DNA from: Escherichia phage vB_EcoS_P1338
Direction: 5' to 3' (one strand)
Sequence record: PP882707.1
Length of the DNA: 41,129 bases
A program made the translations under genes and the position numbers. The notes under the pieces were generated by a model that was given only the letters and a program-made list of their open reading frames with translations, made no database searches and was not told the origin of the DNA. Below are positions 30,234-37,314 of the stretch, piece after piece. Position 1 is the first letter of the stretch. Each line of letters opens with the position of its first letter.

Positions 30234-30676
30234 TTCTTCTTCACCTCTTTAAATTTATCGAATGGAACATCCTTAGAAGGCTCTTTCAGCCAATCAACTG
30301 GAATTAACTTGTCAGCAAACAGAATTCCGTGCTTCTCACAAAATTCTCCATAACTTGTTGGAGACCCTTTGTACAGCTTGGAGCGGCTTGAAGAGAACAC
30401 GATGCGCACATCAAGTTCAGGATGCTGTTCGCGTATCAGTAAGTGTTTCTTGCGGTCATCACTATCCCACAGGCCTTTGGTTTCCACAAAGATGCCATTA
30501 GGTAACAGGAAGTCCGGGCAATAGGTATGGTTGCTTGCAGGAATAACATAGGGTACTCGCCAACGCTCATAGTCGAACTTAATGTTCTTCCCTTCGAGTT
30601 GCTTGCTTACCTTATCCTCCAAGCCAGAGCGAAAGGCACCCACACGAGTGCCTCGACCTGCATAGCCCTTAGCCAT
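30230..30676 (-). CDS. gp3: endonuclease I (Holliday junction resolvase)
   Basis: 148 aa; VGAFRSGLEDKVSKQLE...VPYVIPASNHTY...FVETKGLW matches T7 gp3 by recollection. Confidence 0.95.
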   Translation of the reverse strand: MAKGYAGRGTRVGAFRSGLEDKVSKQLEGKNIKFDYERWRVPYVIPASNHTYCPDFLLPNGIFVETKGLWDSDDRKKHLLIREQHPELDVRIVFSSSRSKLYKGSPTSYGEFCEKHGILFADKLIPVDWLKEPSKDVPFDKFKEVKKK

Positions 30677-31377
30677 TAGAAGTCACCGTCTTCGTCTTCA
30701 TCATCCTCTTCTTCTGGTTCTTCATTCCAGCCAGAGTCGTTTTGTGGCTTGCGGGTCTGTGCTTCATCGGCTTCGTATCCATCTTCTTCGACTTCATCAC
30801 CCCAGTCATCCTCACCACCACCGAACTCGACCAGCTTAATCAGCATCACGGAATCCAGTTGCAGCTTAACGGAAGCACCTGCCACAGCAGACCAACCATA
30901 AGGGAACAGGGTGTATTTAATCTTCAGTTCAGAACCACCAGAGATAGCCGGACGCTCACCACGAATGCGCTTACCTTTGGAGTCCACAATAGCCAAGTCG
31001 ATTGGTTTGTTCTCACCAGTCTTCTTGTCAGTGAACGAGCCGTAGCACTTGAAGTTGAACGTAGTGGTTCCATCTTCGTTATCCATGAAAGGCATGTCGC
31101 CAACGTATGGCTTCAGCGGTTTCTTACCCTTGACAACTTTCGGCGGGTTAGCTTCATACTCTTCGAGACGTGCAGCATAATCCGTTTCGTGGGCTTCGAC
31201 AATCTCGTCAATCATTTTCTGACAGCGAGGGTCGTCGTTGGATACAGTAAGTGACACTTTGTAGACACCACGTTCGTTCTTGAAGTCACCGCTACCGAAG
31301 TCTGGTTTAGCCAGATAACAGTAAGGTTCAGCAACGCCACGAGCGGAAGTGAATACTTTACGTTTATTGAAAGCCAT
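30676..31377 (-). CDS. gp2.5: single-stranded DNA-binding protein
   Basis: 233 aa; AEPYCYLAKPD...KDPRCQKMIDEIV...GGGEDDW and acidic tail ending DEDGDF as in T7 gp2.5. Confidence 0.95.
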   Translation of the reverse strand: MAFNKRKVFTSARGVAEPYCYLAKPDFGSGDFKNERGVYKVSLTVSNDDPRCQKMIDEIVEAHETDYAARLEEYEANPPKVVKGKKPLKPYVGDMPFMDNEDGTTTFNFKCYGSFTDKKTGENKPIDLAIVDSKGKRIRGERPAISGGSELKIKYTLFPYGWSAVAGASVKLQLDSVMLIKLVEFGGGEDDWGDEVEEDGYEADEAQTRKPQNDSGWNEEPEEEDDEDEDGDF

Positions 31378-31388
31378 GATGTTTCTCC

Positions 31389-31565
31389 TTATGAGTTTTT
31401 GAGAAGGTCTTGAAGATAATCTTCAGTTGCATAATACAGGAAAGAGAAGTGAAGCCGCTTTGCGGCTGCCCGTGAGCAATTAGCATTCTTAGCTATCTCA
31501 TCAAACTGACGAGTGCGCAGTGCGTTATTCACGATTGCTTCTCGAATGATTTTGATAAGGGACAT
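31389..31565 (-). CDS. hypothetical 58-aa protein between the phi2.5-type promoter and SSB (no T7 counterpart recalled)
   Basis: internal ATG of track ORF 31389..31694 with AAAGGAGG RBS; stop TAA lies inside the SSB RBS; predicted helical; MSLIKIIREAIVNNALRTRQFDEIAKNANC... Confidence 0.6.
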   Translation of the reverse strand: MSLIKIIREAIVNNALRTRQFDEIAKNANCSRAAAKRLHFSFLYYATEDYLQDLLKNS

Positions 31566-31613
31566 AGAGTCCTCCTTTAGTTTCTGAAAGTTAAAAGTGG
31601 GGAAACGATGTGT

Positions 31614-31636
31614 CTCCCCAATAGTGAGTCCTATTA
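31614..31636 (-). promoter_or_regulatory. T7-type promoter upstream of the SSB operon (phi2.5-like)
   Basis: minus strand TAATAGGACTCACTATTGGGGAG; first three bases are the gene 2 stop codon. Confidence 0.75.
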
Positions 31637-31825
31637 AACCTTTCGGTCTGGACGGATACGTGTCACTGCGAAGCCAGCCGGGACGTATTGCCACTCAGCT
31701 AACTCGTTGGCCTCTTCAAGAGACACAGCGAACACAGGGACTTCGAACGATTGGCCTTGGCCTTCTACCGTTGCGAAGAACTTCTTGTCACCGTTGACCA
31801 GTGACCCTTTGTTTAAGTTGCTCAT
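31634..31825 (-). CDS. gp2: inhibitor of host RNA polymerase
   Basis: track ORF 31634..31843 trimmed to the ATG with GGGAGAGG RBS; KKFFATVEG...SFEVP...[12 protein letters not shown] matches remembered T7 gp2. Confidence 0.85.
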
Positions 31826-31903
31826 TGTCCTCTCCCTTTCCACAGGTTGTACATTTCGAGATAGTCAGTATTACCAGTCTCGTTAAATTTTCTCTCACAC
31901 CAC

Positions 31904-32155
31904 TCACTCGGTTTTAAGATGGTCTTTGGATTTAGGCGCTTCATTAGCTTCCTCCAATCTCTTCAAGTACCACTGAGCCTTCTTCAAGTCCTCAGTAGGG
32001 TTAAACTTCTTCTCGTAACGCCACATGTATTTCAGTACATTACCTTTAAGGAATCCTTTAAACGCCTCTTCTGTCATTGACGCACGAATTGCGTCGAGAC
32101 ATTCAATTCCACCAGACGTGTAGTGTGTGGGTTGGTTTACCATATCTTTGCTCAT
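31904..32155 (-). CDS. short homolog of the C-terminal domain of T7 gp1.7 (nucleotide kinase in T7)
   Basis: track ORF 31904..32182 trimmed to the ATG with AAGGAGG RBS; THYTSGGIECLDAIRASMTEEAFKGFLKGNVLKY aligns with the remembered C-terminal part of T7 gp1.7; N-terminal domain absent. Confidence 0.6.
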   Translation of the reverse strand: MSKDMVNQPTHYTSGGIECLDAIRASMTEEAFKGFLKGNVLKYMWRYEKKFNPTEDLKKAQWYLKRLEEANEAPKSKDHLKTE

Positions 32156-32602: not shown

Positions 32603-33097
32603 TTATAGCTCCAATAGAAGTTTGTTGCGCGCTGCTACAGCCTCGTCAAGTGACTTATGATATGAAACATAACGTCTGCCAAACTTCCTAATTGAGACGG
32701 TGTAGAGGTTCCTATCCTGTCTCTTGTTTATATGCTTAAGTCCCAGCTTGTTAGTACAGTAGGTACCTTTGTTCTGGTTATTCTCAGCACTTGTTACCAC
32801 TCTAAGATTCTCTATAAGGTTGTTCTGCTTGTTCCTGTCAATATGGTCTACCTGTAAACCATCTGGTATAGGTCCATTGGTCAGTTCCCACACTACTCGA
32901 TGGACTCTCAAGTGATGGGCCTTTCCTTCCACTCTGACAGTCAAAGTCCAATATCCAGTTTTCTTTAGAGAACCAACAGGCTTACCATCTAGGCGAGAGA
33001 GGCCACTAGGAGCCTCCCTGTTAACCTTAAATCTTTTCGCTACGATTTCCCTCAACCCCTCTGAAGCAGGTGAAGGAGGGATGTCTAAGGCTCCCAT
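32603..33097 (-). CDS. HNH endonuclease with C-terminal AP2-like DNA-binding domain
   Basis: 164 aa; GGAGG RBS; HHLRVHRVVWE...VDHIDRNKQNNLIENLRVVTSAENNQNK (HNH) followed by YTVSIRKFGRRYVSYHKSLDEAVAARNK (AP2-like); start overlaps the last ~70 nt of the ligase gene. Confidence 0.85.
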   Translation of the reverse strand: MGALDIPPSPASEGLREIVAKRFKVNREAPSGLSRLDGKPVGSLKKTGYWTLTVRVEGKAHHLRVHRVVWELTNGPIPDGLQVDHIDRNKQNNLIENLRVVTSAENNQNKGTYCTNKLGLKHINKRQDRNLYTVSIRKFGRRYVSYHKSLDEAVAARNKLLLEL

Positions 33098-34061
33098 CTT
33101 TTGTTTCCTCCATGTAGTTTACTTGGCACTGCCAGCCCTCATAAGGATTGACCCCACCGAGGATATATGTGTCAGTGTTACAGGCTTCCGTGAACTCATC
33201 CATCAACGCTTGGCTGATATTGTTAGCGGAGACTACGCGACCGGACTCTAAGAGAACCTCGAAGCCAATCACTTTGCCTTCATTAGCGAGACCTTTAGTC
33301 CCCCAATTGAGTCCAACGATAATACCGTCAGCTTCATTCTCAGGCTTCATCTTCCACCAGCCAGACTTCTTGCCACGCTTGTAGACTTCCAGCGGGTCTT
33401 TGACGACCAGACCTTCATGACCATCGGCACGGGCTTTCTCGTAGAGTTCCTGAAGTTCTACCATGTCGTAGACTTCCTTGGCTTCAGAGAGTTCCCAAGT
33501 GATTTCCGGGAAGTGTTCACTAAGAACCGGAATGAGGGAACGCACATGCTCTTGCATCAGGAGGGACATAACGCCATACTCTTTGCCTTCTACCATATCG
33601 TGATACGGCATAGCAGCATACAGAACAACCTTAAGTTTCTTAGGGTCTAAGCGGAAGTCTACTTTACTCCCCTTGAGAGGCTCTACTCCACCAATATCAA
33701 ATCCACAATTTGTCTTCTTGAGCCACTTGGTACGCAGTAGGCCAGACCCTGTGTTGAAGTCTACGCCTTTGACCATCAGTTCACCATCCAGCATGAAGCC
33801 ATCAGGGAAAATCCAGCGGTCATCTTTGAGAACATTAGCCCAGCGTTGGTCGAACCCATTAAGGTGCTCAAGCGCGGGGATGGTCTTAGAGACACGGGAC
33901 AGCCACAGGCAGTCAGCCGTATTGTCAACCACGATGTTACCACGCACACCATCATGCTTAGTGTCAGCAATCAGGTAGCCAGCTTTGTCGAGTGCTTTCT
34001 TAATGGCAGACTCAACGTAGGATACAGCTTTAAAAGGGTTAGTCTTGAATGTGATTTCCAT
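33027..34061 (-). CDS. gp1.3: ATP-dependent DNA ligase
   Basis: 344 aa; adenylation motif KHDGVRG; TNPFKAVSYVESAIKKALDKAGYLIA...HEGLVVKDP...GKKSGWWKMKPENEADG matches T7 ligase by recollection. Confidence 0.95.
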   Translation of the reverse strand: MEITFKTNPFKAVSYVESAIKKALDKAGYLIADTKHDGVRGNIVVDNTADCLWLSRVSKTIPALEHLNGFDQRWANVLKDDRWIFPDGFMLDGELMVKGVDFNTGSGLLRTKWLKKTNCGFDIGGVEPLKGSKVDFRLDPKKLKVVLYAAMPYHDMVEGKEYGVMSLLMQEHVRSLIPVLSEHFPEITWELSEAKEVYDMVELQELYEKARADGHEGLVVKDPLEVYKRGKKSGWWKMKPENEADGIIVGLNWGTKGLANEGKVIGFEVLLESGRVVSANNISQALMDEFTEACNTDTYILGGVNPYEGWQCQVNYMEETKDGSLRHPSFTCFRGVEGNRSEKI

Positions 34062-34662: not shown

Positions 34663-37314
34663 TTAGGCAAACGCAAAGTCTGACTTCAGGATTTCTTGGA
34701 GGTCGAGAGAGCCTTTAGCTGGCATCTCAGGCATCTTGTCTAACTGTGATTCGTGTAACTGCTCGGCGAATTGCTCATAGAAGTCTGCAAGTACATCGTT
34801 CTCTTCGTAAGTGTTGACCATCGTTTCACGCACTGCTTTAAACAGGTTGCCAGCATCAGCAGGGATAGTACCAAAGGAGTCATGAATCAGTGCAAAGGAT
34901 TCCACACCGTAGACCTCATTGGAGCGGACCACAGTCATGCGCAGGTGGCTACCATCCATTGAGTGAACAAAGTTAGGTGCGATGCCTGACTCCTGTTTAC
35001 GAGCATCAATCCCGCTATCCTTGTTGGTGTTCACGGTAGGCTGTAGACGAATCTGGCCTAAGAACATTAGGTTCAAGCGGGTCTGTACTGGCTTCTTGTA
35101 TTCCTGCCAGACCGGGAAGCCATCAGGAGTTACCCAATGTACTGCGCAACGCTTGCGAAGAACCTCTTTGGTCTTCTTGTCCTTGACTTCAGCAGCTAGG
35201 AGTTTAGCCGCAGACTTCAGCCAGTTCATTGCTTCAACAGCAGCGACCACAGTCACTGTTACCGATTCCCAAATCAGTTTAGCCATATAGCCAGCCGCTT
35301 GGTTCGGTTGAGTGAACATCAAGCCTTTACCATCGTCGATAGCTGGCTGAATGGTGTCCTCTAGCACTTGGTCACGGAAGCCGTACTCCTTGGACCCGTA
35401 AGCCAACGTCATGACCGAACGCTTAGTGACCTTGCGAGTCACACCATATGCCAACCATTGACCCGCTAACTCTTTCGTTCCCAGCTTGAGCTTCTCAGTG
35501 ATTTCACCAGTGTCCTTGTTTGTCACTGTTTCCACTTCGTTATCAGTGCCGTTGATTACCGCTCCGCGGAGCATCTCGTTAACACGGTCAGCAACAATGC
35601 GATAGATGTCTTGGACTTCCTTGCTTGGCAACAGGTTAACCGCACGACCACCTACTTCATCACGAAGCATCGCGGAGAAGTGCTGAATACCAGAGCAGCT
35701 ACCATCGAACGCCAGCGGCAGAGAGCAGTTGTAGTTCATGCCGTGGTGTTGAACTCCAGCATACTCGAAGCAGAACGCGAGGAAGCAGAACGGAGAGTCC
35801 TGTTCGGCCCACCAAGTGTTGGCAATCGGGTCAGCCGCAACGCTCATTATGTTCTCATGGTTGTCCTCAATGAACTTAATGCGTTCTGCGAAGTCCACCT
35901 TGTCCACACCAGCAGTGTTAGCACCATGAATCTTCAGCCAGTAGTACCCATCGACACCAATCGGTTTACCTTTAGCGAGCGTCAGCAAGCCTTTGGTCAT
36001 GTCGTTGCCTTGCGGGTTAAACATTGGAACTGCATACACTCGACCGCGCCAGTCCATGTTCATCGGGAACCAGATAGCTTTAAACTGTGCGAACTTATTG
36101 GCTTGCCCTAACATGAACTCCATGCTCATGCGACGAGACACGCGAGCCTTCTCTTTGCGGTAGATTGCGGAGGCCGCTTTCTTCCACGCTTTGAGTGATG
36201 CCTCGTTCGTGTCGATGTCTTCAGGTTTGACAGGCAGTTCACCACGTTCGAGAGCAGGTACATCGTCAACCGGGCAATGCTTCCAGTTCACAATCTCGTT
36301 GACCACTGCCAGAACCTTCTTGTTAATCTTCCAAGGAGTATTCTGTGCGATGTTCACCGCCTTGTAAACTTCAGGCATGTACACGTCGTTGTAACGCTCA
36401 AGTCCCTTCTTGGAACCAGTACGAACCAGAGAGAGCGGCTTGCGACCAGCAGCCCAATAGCCACCACCAACCGGACTCGTCCAAGGCTTCGGGGGGACCA
36501 CGCAAGGTTGATACATCGGAGCGATTGCAGCCAGTGCACCAGCACGCTTAGATAACAGGTCAACGTATTGTTCGGTCAGTTGGATGTACTCGCCATCCTT
36601 CTCAACGTTACCAGCAAACGGTCGGTGTAACTCAACGAGACCAGTAGACCCAATGAGCAGTTCCAACATGCGTACACCAACATGAATTGACTCTTCAGGT
36701 GTCCATGTGGTCCACTTGGTTTGCAGTTGACCAGCATCTAACATCTTACCTTCAACCGCTTGCATGAATGCCTTCTTGTAGACGATACCTACGCGCTTGT
36801 TGAGTGCTTCCTGTACATGGTTCTTAAAGTGCTTCGCTTCTTCGTCACGGATGCGACCAAAACGTAGCTCATCTTCAATACTGCGACCAATCTTAGTGGC
36901 GACCGATTGAAGGTTCGTGTATTCCTCTTTGGTCAAGCAAGCCAGTGTGACCTTCAGTGTGATGAATGCAGCAGCTTCAGGTGCAACCTTCTGTACCAAA
37001 TTGTAGGCCACTGGACGCTTGCCACGCTTAGCTTCCACTTCGGTGAACCAAGTGTTCCATGCTTCAATGAACTTAGGTGCGAGAGATGACAGGAGCGGTT
37101 TAGCCACTGCGTTATCACCGAACTCACCCGCTTTGATTTGACGTTCCATTGCCTTAAGGAAACGCTTCTCGCCTTCAGTGTGCGCTTCGTGTTCTAACTC
37201 AAGCTGCGTAGCTGCAAGCTGTGCGCCGTAATGGTCAGCCAGAATGTTGTACGGCTGAATTGCGTTAGCGATGTCAGAAAAGTCATTCTTTGGTGCATTG
37301 ATTACGTTAGTCAT
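34663..37314 (-). CDS. gp1: DNA-directed RNA polymerase (single-subunit, T7 RNAP type)
   Basis: 883 aa, same length as T7 RNAP and collinear throughout; palm and specificity-loop blocks conserved (NTNKDSGIDARKQESGIAPNFVHS, ALIHDSFGT, ending SDFAFA). Confidence 0.99.
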   Translation of the reverse strand: MTNVINAPKNDFSDIANAIQPYNILADHYGAQLAATQLELEHEAHTEGEKRFLKAMERQIKAGEFGDNAVAKPLLSSLAPKFIEAWNTWFTEVEAKRGKRPVAYNLVQKVAPEAAAFITLKVTLACLTKEEYTNLQSVATKIGRSIEDELRFGRIRDEEAKHFKNHVQEALNKRVGIVYKKAFMQAVEGKMLDAGQLQTKWTTWTPEESIHVGVRMLELLIGSTGLVELHRPFAGNVEKDGEYIQLTEQYVDLLSKRAGALAAIAPMYQPCVVPPKPWTSPVGGGYWAAGRKPLSLVRTGSKKGLERYNDVYMPEVYKAVNIAQNTPWKINKKVLAVVNEIVNWKHCPVDDVPALERGELPVKPEDIDTNEASLKAWKKAASAIYRKEKARVSRRMSMEFMLGQANKFAQFKAIWFPMNMDWRGRVYAVPMFNPQGNDMTKGLLTLAKGKPIGVDGYYWLKIHGANTAGVDKVDFAERIKFIEDNHENIMSVAADPIANTWWAEQDSPFCFLAFCFEYAGVQHHGMNYNCSLPLAFDGSCSGIQHFSAMLRDEVGGRAVNLLPSKEVQDIYRIVADRVNEMLRGAVINGTDNEVETVTNKDTGEITEKLKLGTKELAGQWLAYGVTRKVTKRSVMTLAYGSKEYGFRDQVLEDTIQPAIDDGKGLMFTQPNQAAGYMAKLIWESVTVTVVAAVEAMNWLKSAAKLLAAEVKDKKTKEVLRKRCAVHWVTPDGFPVWQEYKKPVQTRLNLMFLGQIRLQPTVNTNKDSGIDARKQESGIAPNFVHSMDGSHLRMTVVRSNEVYGVESFALIHDSFGTIPADAGNLFKAVRETMVNTYEENDVLADFYEQFAEQLHESQLDKMPEMPAKGSLDLQEILKSDFAFA

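Follow-up and report, generated by a model that had tools for sequence, protein, structure and literature searches.

A mobile 58-codon gene encoding a predicted helix-turn-helix protein between genes 2 and 2.5 of Escherichia phage vB_EcoS_P1338

Bacteriophage T7 produces a number of small proteins, among them gp2, gp5.5, gp5.7 and gp0.4, which are expressed before or during replication and are mostly dispensable on laboratory hosts. Many small products of the class I and class II regions, for example gp2, gp5.5 and gp5.7, bind host proteins, and extra small genes are commonplace in the class II regions of T7-like phages. In the reference T7 annotation gene 2, the phi2.5 promoter and gene 2.5 follow one another with no coding sequence between the two genes. 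The present analysis concerns a 58-codon open reading frame (ORF), here called gene X, that occupies this interval in Escherichia phage vB_EcoS_P1338 (record PP882707.1); the whole stretch of 41,129 nucleotides that was analysed is referred to as the window. Gene X is a member of the protein family phrog_9565, and we propose, with a probability of roughly 45%, that its product is a nucleic-acid-binding protein, probably a binder of double-stranded DNA (dsDNA), which serves as a small regulator or takeover factor in the replication phase. Although T7-group genomes are among the best annotated, the interval contains a mobile gene, conserved and under selection, for a protein of 58 amino acids (aa).

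Gene X is situated at 31389-31565 on the minus strand, as are all the genes around it in the window, and consists of 58 codons followed by a TAA stop. The ATG start codon lies at 31565-31563 and the stop codon at 31391-31389. The product, MSLIKIIREAIVNNALRTRQFDEIAKNANCSRAAAKRLHFSFLYYATEDYLQDLLKNS, has a mass of 6.75 kDa and an isoelectric point (pI) of 9.4; databases list an identical protein, uncharacterised, for Escherichia phage vB_EcoS_P1338. A Shine-Dalgarno sequence, AAAGGAGG (31571-31578, minus strand), which is also found in the Przondovirus homologue discussed below, precedes the start codon with a spacing of 5 nt. At the other end, 11 nt separate the gene from the start codon (31377) of gene 2.5, which encodes the phage single-stranded DNA-binding protein (SSB), and the first two bases of the gene 2.5 Shine-Dalgarno sequence, AAGGAG (31385-31390, minus strand), are both A's of the gene X stop codon. 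An earlier note on this DNA had described a 58-codon ORF with a phi2.5-type promoter and a strong ribosome-binding site (RBS) upstream and with its stop inside the SSB Shine-Dalgarno sequence; all these elements were found, the overlap at the stop amounting to the two A's. On this geometry translational coupling of gene X to gp2.5 is plausible, though not required. The alignment shows that the same strong AAGGAG is kept in relatives devoid of gene X, so translation of gp2.5 appears to be independent of it.

Gene X is very probably a real gene, because pairwise Nei-Gojobori comparisons of the T7-group copies gave ratios of non-synonymous to synonymous substitution (dN/dS, or omega) of 0.06-0.15, with silent sites near saturation. 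No copy contains a frameshift or an internal stop, and among distant homologues it is the protein that is conserved and not the nucleotide sequence. The opposite idea, namely that the ORF arose by chance in an expanded SSB leader whose RNA rather than protein is functional, has very little to recommend it. It could draw on the folding of the 250-nt leader region, which is better than that of shuffled sequence (z -3.1), and on the identity of silent sites between the window and its two closest relatives, L017 and L018. The folding signal, however, originates mostly from a promoter-proximal 5' hairpin that is also present in phages without gene X, and a search of Rfam around the gene returned no match. 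Given these two results and the conservation of protein but not nucleotides, the RNA-only explanation fails; a very confident AlphaFold2 model and the occurrence of homologues in unrelated genomic contexts also speak against it.

The window phage is a Berlinvirus-type T7 relative. The 4 kb around gene X are 89-94% identical to Berlinvirus isolates (P483, 285P, BA14 and relatives), which cover only 73-85% of that region. The nearest isolates, P483 and 285P, have spacers of 69 and 68 nt between genes 2 and 2.5, as opposed to 256 nt in the window. The difference is a clean indel of ∼187 nt, at approximately 31383-31580 on the minus strand and absent from P483, 285P and T7, that comprises no more than the ORF with its RBS and its stop. 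This cassette is bounded by imperfect direct repeats of RBS type, CAGAAAC-TAAAGGAG at the 5' edge and CAAAAACTCATAAGGAG at the 3' edge, and the exact joints are ambiguous within these repeats. A single further direct repeat of 11 nt, reported at both ends of the ORF, is probably due to chance. No orthologue occupies the same position in T7, P483 or 285P, which places gene X outside the canonical T7 gene set and bears out the earlier note, which had no T7 gene between genes 2 and 2.5. To judge from the sequence comparisons, gene X is a horizontally mobile accessory gene.

The window protein matches phrog_9565 over its full length (E 2.5e-26, 92.3 bits), residues 1-58 corresponding to positions 4-61 of the 64 in the profile, and it carries all of the conserved residues of the family: R8, A10, R17, I24, R32, A35, K36, L38, F42, Y44, E48 and L51. 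Searches with tblastn located the family in 335 phage records. When 1.84 billion representatives were searched exhaustively with a profile, only 49 clusters (50% identity) came up, and most of these are stand-alone proteins of 57-84 aa. The carriers belong to the Autographiviridae, the Schitoviridae, Kuravirus, Felixounavirus/Mooglevirus and the Chaseviridae. As homologues are spread across the T7 group and other phage families, gene X is not lineage-specific, and the suggestion to that effect in the earlier note has to be given up. The gene does behave as an accessory one, which some lineages carry and others lack, and the sequence, profile and presence/absence searches that the note proposed show homologues that are neither universal in the T7 group nor of known function. 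Public sources describe no function for any member, the named ones being without exception 'hypothetical' or 'uncharacterized', and a literature search found no paper on any of them. Among 50,697 phage genomes there is no copy more than 80% identical to gene X.

Within the T7 group the family is present in ∼62 Klebsiella Przondovirus genomes, whose homologues fall into two clades with 72% and 50% identity to the window protein. The order gene 2, gene X, gene 2.5 is identical to that of the window in the three Przondovirus records examined. Metagenomic T7-like contigs supplied copies that are 91%, 81% and 76% identical, each directly upstream of gene 2.5, and a scan of IMG/VR added just two further Przondovirus-like copies. 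Some metagenomic T7-like phages have a further gene, of 118-121 aa and without a Pfam match, placed between gp2 and gene X (L007:2074-2439, L013:2082-2438); since some lineages carry such an additional gene, the interval between genes 2 and 2.5 is apparently a hotspot for accessory genes. In another T7-like lineage a protein with 60% identity, P0011, is encoded between gene 4.7 and gene 5 (L020:2501-2683, L021:2501-2683), its gene overlapping the start codon of the DNA polymerase gene (gene 5) by 4 nt. The position of the P0011 gene at gene 5 indicates that the same cassette has entered a second slot, where it again abuts a replisome gene.

Outside the T7 group the surroundings are varied. In N4-like Gamaleyavirus the homologue closes the middle-gene block, with gp48 on one side and the virion RNA polymerase gene on the other, and in Kuravirus (phiEco32-type) it sits among small genes of unknown function. 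In the Chaseviridae, for example Yersinia phage PYps3T, it is found upstream of the genes for thymidylate synthase and primase-helicase, the distance in Chaseviridae-like contigs being ∼0.8-1.5 kb. Felixounavirus and Mooglevirus possess the family domain as the N-terminal part of a protein of ∼150 aa, and a library of viral structures contributed further uncharacterised proteins from Aeromonas, Shewanella and Proteus phages. Fusion of the domain to C-terminal extensions of 60-120 aa, which differ between members, was noted in Felixounavirus UAB_Phi87 (Phi87_30, L005:3001-3465) and in P0057-P0059, P0067, P0026 and P0021. These extensions matched no family in Pfam, NCBIfam or PADLOC, and because of the missing Pfam matches the longer members (100-182 aa, including the Felix O1p51-like proteins of ∼150 aa) give no functional clue. 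Some records lack an annotation of the homologue, among them those of Klebsiella phages 150016, 150009 and 150021; the GenBank record of Escherichia phage G7C has no coding sequence over it (L004:3001-3162, record 35960-36136), between gp47.2 and the virion RNA polymerase gene.

In all the T7-group loci examined gene X directly abuts gene 2.5, except in one lineage, where it runs into the start of gene 5. This arrangement would suit a replisome accessory factor acting with SSB, DNA polymerase or primase-helicase, for instance one that binds the acidic C-terminus of gp2.5 or helps to load or modulate the replisome. The neighbours of the Chaseviridae-like copies and the position of the N4-like copies beside the virion RNA polymerase gene are compatible with such a role, as is the basic character of the window allele when set against the strongly acidic gp2.5 tail. 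We nevertheless regard it as improbable: most T7-group phages, including T7, P483 and 285P, replicate without gene X and the replisomes of the carriers are unrelated, both of which weaken the case, and the copies of Felix O1 and phiEco32 type are not beside replication genes but have small genes of unknown function around them. Fold and sequence matches of the product to the Pol I family were weak and not significant, and were set aside.

AlphaFold2 models the product as four helices with a confidence score (pLDDT) of 96.9: H1 spans residues 3-13, H2 residues 17-28, H3 residues 32-43 and H4 residues 48-57, with H2 and H3 forming a putative helix-turn-helix (HTH). A three-residue turn links these two helices, so that the model has the three-helix core and the sharp turn of an HTH. 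Positions 4, 5, 8, 9, 10, 15 and 18 of the classical 20-residue HTH pattern are matched by the family consensus, I-A-x-x-L-G-C-S-R-x-x-A-K-x-L; the window protein has N in place of G at the turn. The matches that head a Foldseek search are Mu transposase I-beta, AsnC, CENP-B and homeodomains, for the most part HTH DNA-binding domains. Sub-threshold matches to the Pfam families HTH_23, Sigma70_r4(_2), HTH_17, HTH_28, HTH_11 and HTH_10 occurred in about 18 of 60 family members and fell on the H2-H3 region wherever coordinates were listed; the window protein itself gave none. The model and these resemblances make it probable that the gene X protein adopts an HTH fold. The earlier note had called the product helical with no recognisable motif; the first part stands, whereas the second does not, in view of the HTH signature of the consensus and the dominance of HTH domains in the fold search.

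The pattern of conservation, determined like the pI statistics below on 60 diverse family members, can be mapped onto the model. The hydrophobic core is made up of the conserved positions I7, A10, I24, A35, L38, F40, F42, Y44 and L51, and the polar positions R8 (90%), R17 (83%, with K in a further 10%), R32 (83%), K36 (97%) and E48 (83%) are conserved as well. Adjoining these polar residues, columns 15, 16, 18, 19, 33, 34, 37 and 39 are among the most variable of the family, with 2.5-3.5 bits. Basic anchors at the N-terminus of H2 and on helix 3, set amid variable residues, have the look of a nucleic-acid-binding HTH, and a protein interface engaged in an arms race would also fit.

Taken as a sequence of events, the proposal would run as follows. 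The phage RNA polymerase would transcribe gene X from the phi2.5-type promoter as part of the class II (DNA-metabolism) message that encodes SSB, and the gene would be translated from its own strong RBS. The product, a minimal tetra-helical HTH domain, might bind nucleic acid, most probably dsDNA. The contacts would be made by R17, at the N-terminal end of H2, and by R32 and K36 of the recognition helix, with R8 as a possible helper, and fine adjustment of specificity would fall to the hypervariable positions 15, 16, 18, 19, 33, 34, 37 and 39. Such a protein would serve during replication as a small regulator or as a factor in host takeover. We put forward this mode of action, the binding of nucleic acid, tentatively, at slightly less than even odds.

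Several observations weigh against this proposal. No curated Pfam HTH family scored above its gathering threshold, the best single members reaching E 0.0014 with HTH_23 and E 0.0019 with Sigma70_r4, and neither the protein alone nor a profile of 60 members produced a significant match in sequence searches of the PDB; the matches seen there, to a WUSCHEL homeodomain (E 1.4), a VHH (E 0.15) and T7 DNA polymerase (E 1.7), were dismissed as noise. Operator-like inverted repeats were sought around gene X and none was found, and the leader upstream of the gene is the same in phages that lack it. The median pI of the family is 7.7, and a value below 6, unexpected for an obligate DNA binder, is found in 15 of the 60 members. 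Finally, the conservation of surface residues across phage families that share hosts, not genomes, fits a common host target, which might equally well be a protein.

The allele present in the window gives an unexpected signal. Its closest relatives, L017 (2501-2677) and L018 (2250-2426), share 91% aa identity with it and are separated from it by six non-synonymous and no synonymous differences. The flanking genes show a very different balance in the same comparison, with 8 silent and no replacement changes in gp2 and 34 silent and 15 replacement changes in gp2.5, at a proportion of silent differences (pS) of ∼0.18-0.23; the contrast between gene X and its flanks is significant (Fisher's exact test, p = 8e-4). 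At the pS of the flanks ∼8.5 silent differences would be expected in gene X, and the probability of observing none is ∼7e-5. L017 and L018 are in turn identical at the nucleotide level over gene X and the first ∼70 nt of gp2.5 and differ on both sides. Identical silent sites in gene X between diverged flanks suggest that the cassette has spread recently between diverged backbones.

Since that spread five replacements, T15A, V16L, Y19R, Q37R and Y39H, were fixed in the lineage of the window, and the other T7-group copies examined are consensus-like at these positions. The replacements adjoin R17 and K36 within the putative HTH surface and raise the pI from 7.8 to 9.4, a rise that came with the gain of Y19R, Q37R and Y39H. 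An intermediate allele, P0068, has T15A, Y19H, Q37R and Y39H and retains V16; its histidine at position 19 implies that this codon was hit twice, TAT to CAT to CGT. A word search of 5.8 billion clustered proteins, with nine candidates, revealed no donor with the five residues apart from the phage's own record, which makes point mutation likelier than patch recombination, and the exact window protein was not found in assemblies. The series from consensus through P0068 to the window, with no silent change, might be a sign of recurrent positive selection, and directional selection on the HTH surface of the window allele is suggested by the sequence comparison. The five replacements fall in the least constrained columns of the family and the numbers are small: calculations from site counts show that the 6:0 ratio rejects the family regime of omega ∼0.1 (P ∼3e-4) and does not by itself reject neutrality (omega = 1, P ∼0.2).

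This last result would be compatible with a selfish or neutral passenger, a cassette recombining easily between promoter and RBS microhomologies, of little or no benefit to its carrier and with an allele left to drift. The RBS-type imperfect repeats at the cassette edges and the patchy distribution are in harmony with such a view, which we consider very improbable all the same: purifying selection is evident across the family, R8, R17, R32, K36 and E48 are conserved over five phage families, the reading frame is intact in every copy and the strong Shine-Dalgarno sequence is kept, and the 6:0 ratio is itself at odds with the family regime.

The same replacement-only divergence, together with the intermediate allele and the doubly hit codon 19, would also be explained if the HTH-like bundle bound a conserved enterobacterial protein with a surface caught up in an arms race. 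The target might belong to a defence system or to the transcription machinery, in the latter case with the product acting as a decoy of sigma region 4 or LuxR type. A protein-binding host-takeover or anti-defence factor of this kind is less than likely by itself, but nearly as probable as nucleic-acid binding. A host-interaction role, put forward in the earlier note, was neither borne out nor contradicted by the analysis. The accessory pattern of presence and absence and the horizontal spread among five unrelated virulent phage families with common hosts in the Enterobacterales would be natural for it, as would the location of the gene among small early and middle genes in Kuravirus and Felixounavirus. 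The acidity of a quarter of the members, the sub-threshold matches of Sigma70_r4 type in six of them and the habit of small T7 class I and class II proteins of binding host proteins are likewise in its favour. The conserved residues, on the other hand, are those expected at DNA in an HTH, and the substitution signal is compatible with neutral drift at weakly constrained sites. PADLOC gave no match for the window protein and three longer members, its library covering defence systems and not anti-defence proteins. Four peptide strings diagnostic of the family are absent from those supplements searched of the accessory-gene screen of Silas et al. (doi 10.1101/2023.04.06.535777). A more specific version is more doubtful still, namely that gene X encodes a host-directed factor, which either inhibits a defence system or modulates a conserved enterobacterial protein associated with DNA or transcription, and that it has been passed among at least five unrelated virulent phage families with its HTH surface under recurrent positive selection.

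The genes on either side of gene X are those typical of the T7 group. Gene 2.5 (30676-31377, minus strand) encodes a T7-type SSB of 233 aa (PF21265 SBB_T7, E 1.6e-87) and gene 2 (31634-31825, minus strand) encodes the host RNA polymerase inhibitor gp2, of 63 aa (PF16857, E 5.8e-27). The phi2.5-type phage RNA polymerase promoter, TAATAGGACTCACTATTGGGGAGA, is an exact match at 31613-31636 on the minus strand, and its first three bases are the stop codon of gp2. The promoter core, GACTCACTAnnGGGAGA, occurs in at least 12 copies in the window, all on the minus strand, compared with 0.08 expected by chance. In the alignment the promoter of gene X is also present in P483 and 285P, and T7 has phi2.5 at the equivalent site.

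The transcript from this promoter is predicted to begin with a 5' leader stem-loop of eight pairs, GGGGAGACACAUCGUUUCCCC (31599-31619, minus strand); other T7-type leaders likewise start with a hairpin. A 'terminator-like' match near gene X turned out to be this leader hairpin. Relative to P483, 285P and L018, the hairpin of the window has an extra G (31619) and an extra C (31602), a paired, compensatory insertion that lengthens the stem from GGG...CCC to GGGG...CCCC, so that the initiating run of the promoter is GGGG and not GGG as in relatives. Further upstream, a 40-aa ORF (31822-31944, minus strand) overlaps the end of the homologue of gene 1.7 (DUF3310) and the start of gene 2; it occupies the position of gene 1.8, for which related contigs have Pfam DUF8272, and shows no Pfam match at E <=0.001. 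The DNA ligase gene (33027-34061) overlaps at its 3' end, by ∼70 nt, the 5' end of an ORF of 164 aa for an HNH_3 homing-type endonuclease (32603-33097, minus strand, E 5e-21). This ORF is probably another mobile insertion, since the closest Berlinvirus isolates leave this stretch uncovered in BLAST.

Gene X is worthy of follow-up because of its distribution across phage families, its very small product with a confidently predicted fold, and its natural series of alleles. The family is small, with its 49 clusters, is confined to virulent phages mostly of Enterobacterales, and always resides in early or middle modules, which makes it a tractable candidate for a takeover, regulatory or anti-defence function. 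The mass of 6.75 kDa and the confident predicted fold would ease biochemical work, and the alleles could serve as ready-made specificity mutants. Should the host-directed reading hold, the family would represent a new, very small and broadly distributed group of counter-defence or takeover proteins; should gene X encode only a dispensable DNA-binding protein, it would still document the movement of small cassettes among T7-like phages by way of promoter and RBS microhomology.

Among described systems, the predicted product might structurally resemble tetra-helical HTH domains such as those of LuxR/FixJ/GerE and sigma-70 region 4, or the HTH of PprI/IrrE type (PDB 8sln), although no curated family threshold is reached. 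In PprI the HTH is one domain of a 240-aa protease, whereas gene X has no protease domain and no sequence relationship was detected. NCBIfam has no entry matching the window protein, and one of five other members gave non-significant matches only (E 0.07 and 0.13, far below cut-off). Nmad5 (PF18757) matched residues 3-37 weakly (E 0.012, 16.1 bits against a cut-off of 27), with a parallel weak match to the 208-position profile phrog_1965. Membership of Nmad5 was rejected: the score is below cut-off, only the first 37 of 206 profile positions are involved, one of 60 members is concerned and there is no context of DNA-modification genes.

The T7 proteins gp2, gp5.5, gp5.7 and gp0.4 are like the gene X product in their small size and in the part of the genome that encodes them. 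They are unrelated to it in sequence and fold, their targets are RNA polymerase, H-NS and FtsZ, and gene X, unlike them, is common to phage families outside the T7 group. The nearest known entity is the family itself, that is phrog_9565 and the hypothetical proteins of Przondovirus gp16 type. HOT34_gp16 of Klebsiella phage SH-Kp 152234 (YP_009966345.1) resembles the gene X product over its full length with 72% aa identity, is encoded in the same slot, and shares with it the RBS and the layout of the stop beside the Shine-Dalgarno sequence. The Przondovirus protein has 60 aa as against 58 in the window, which lacks the C-terminal K-D; its setting is a Klebsiella Przondovirus rather than an Escherichia coli Berlinvirus-type backbone, and, of the two, only the window allele has the five derived replacements on the putative HTH surface. 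The family was already catalogued, though uncharacterised; what gene X adds to it is a member with a derived allele, carried by a new backbone.

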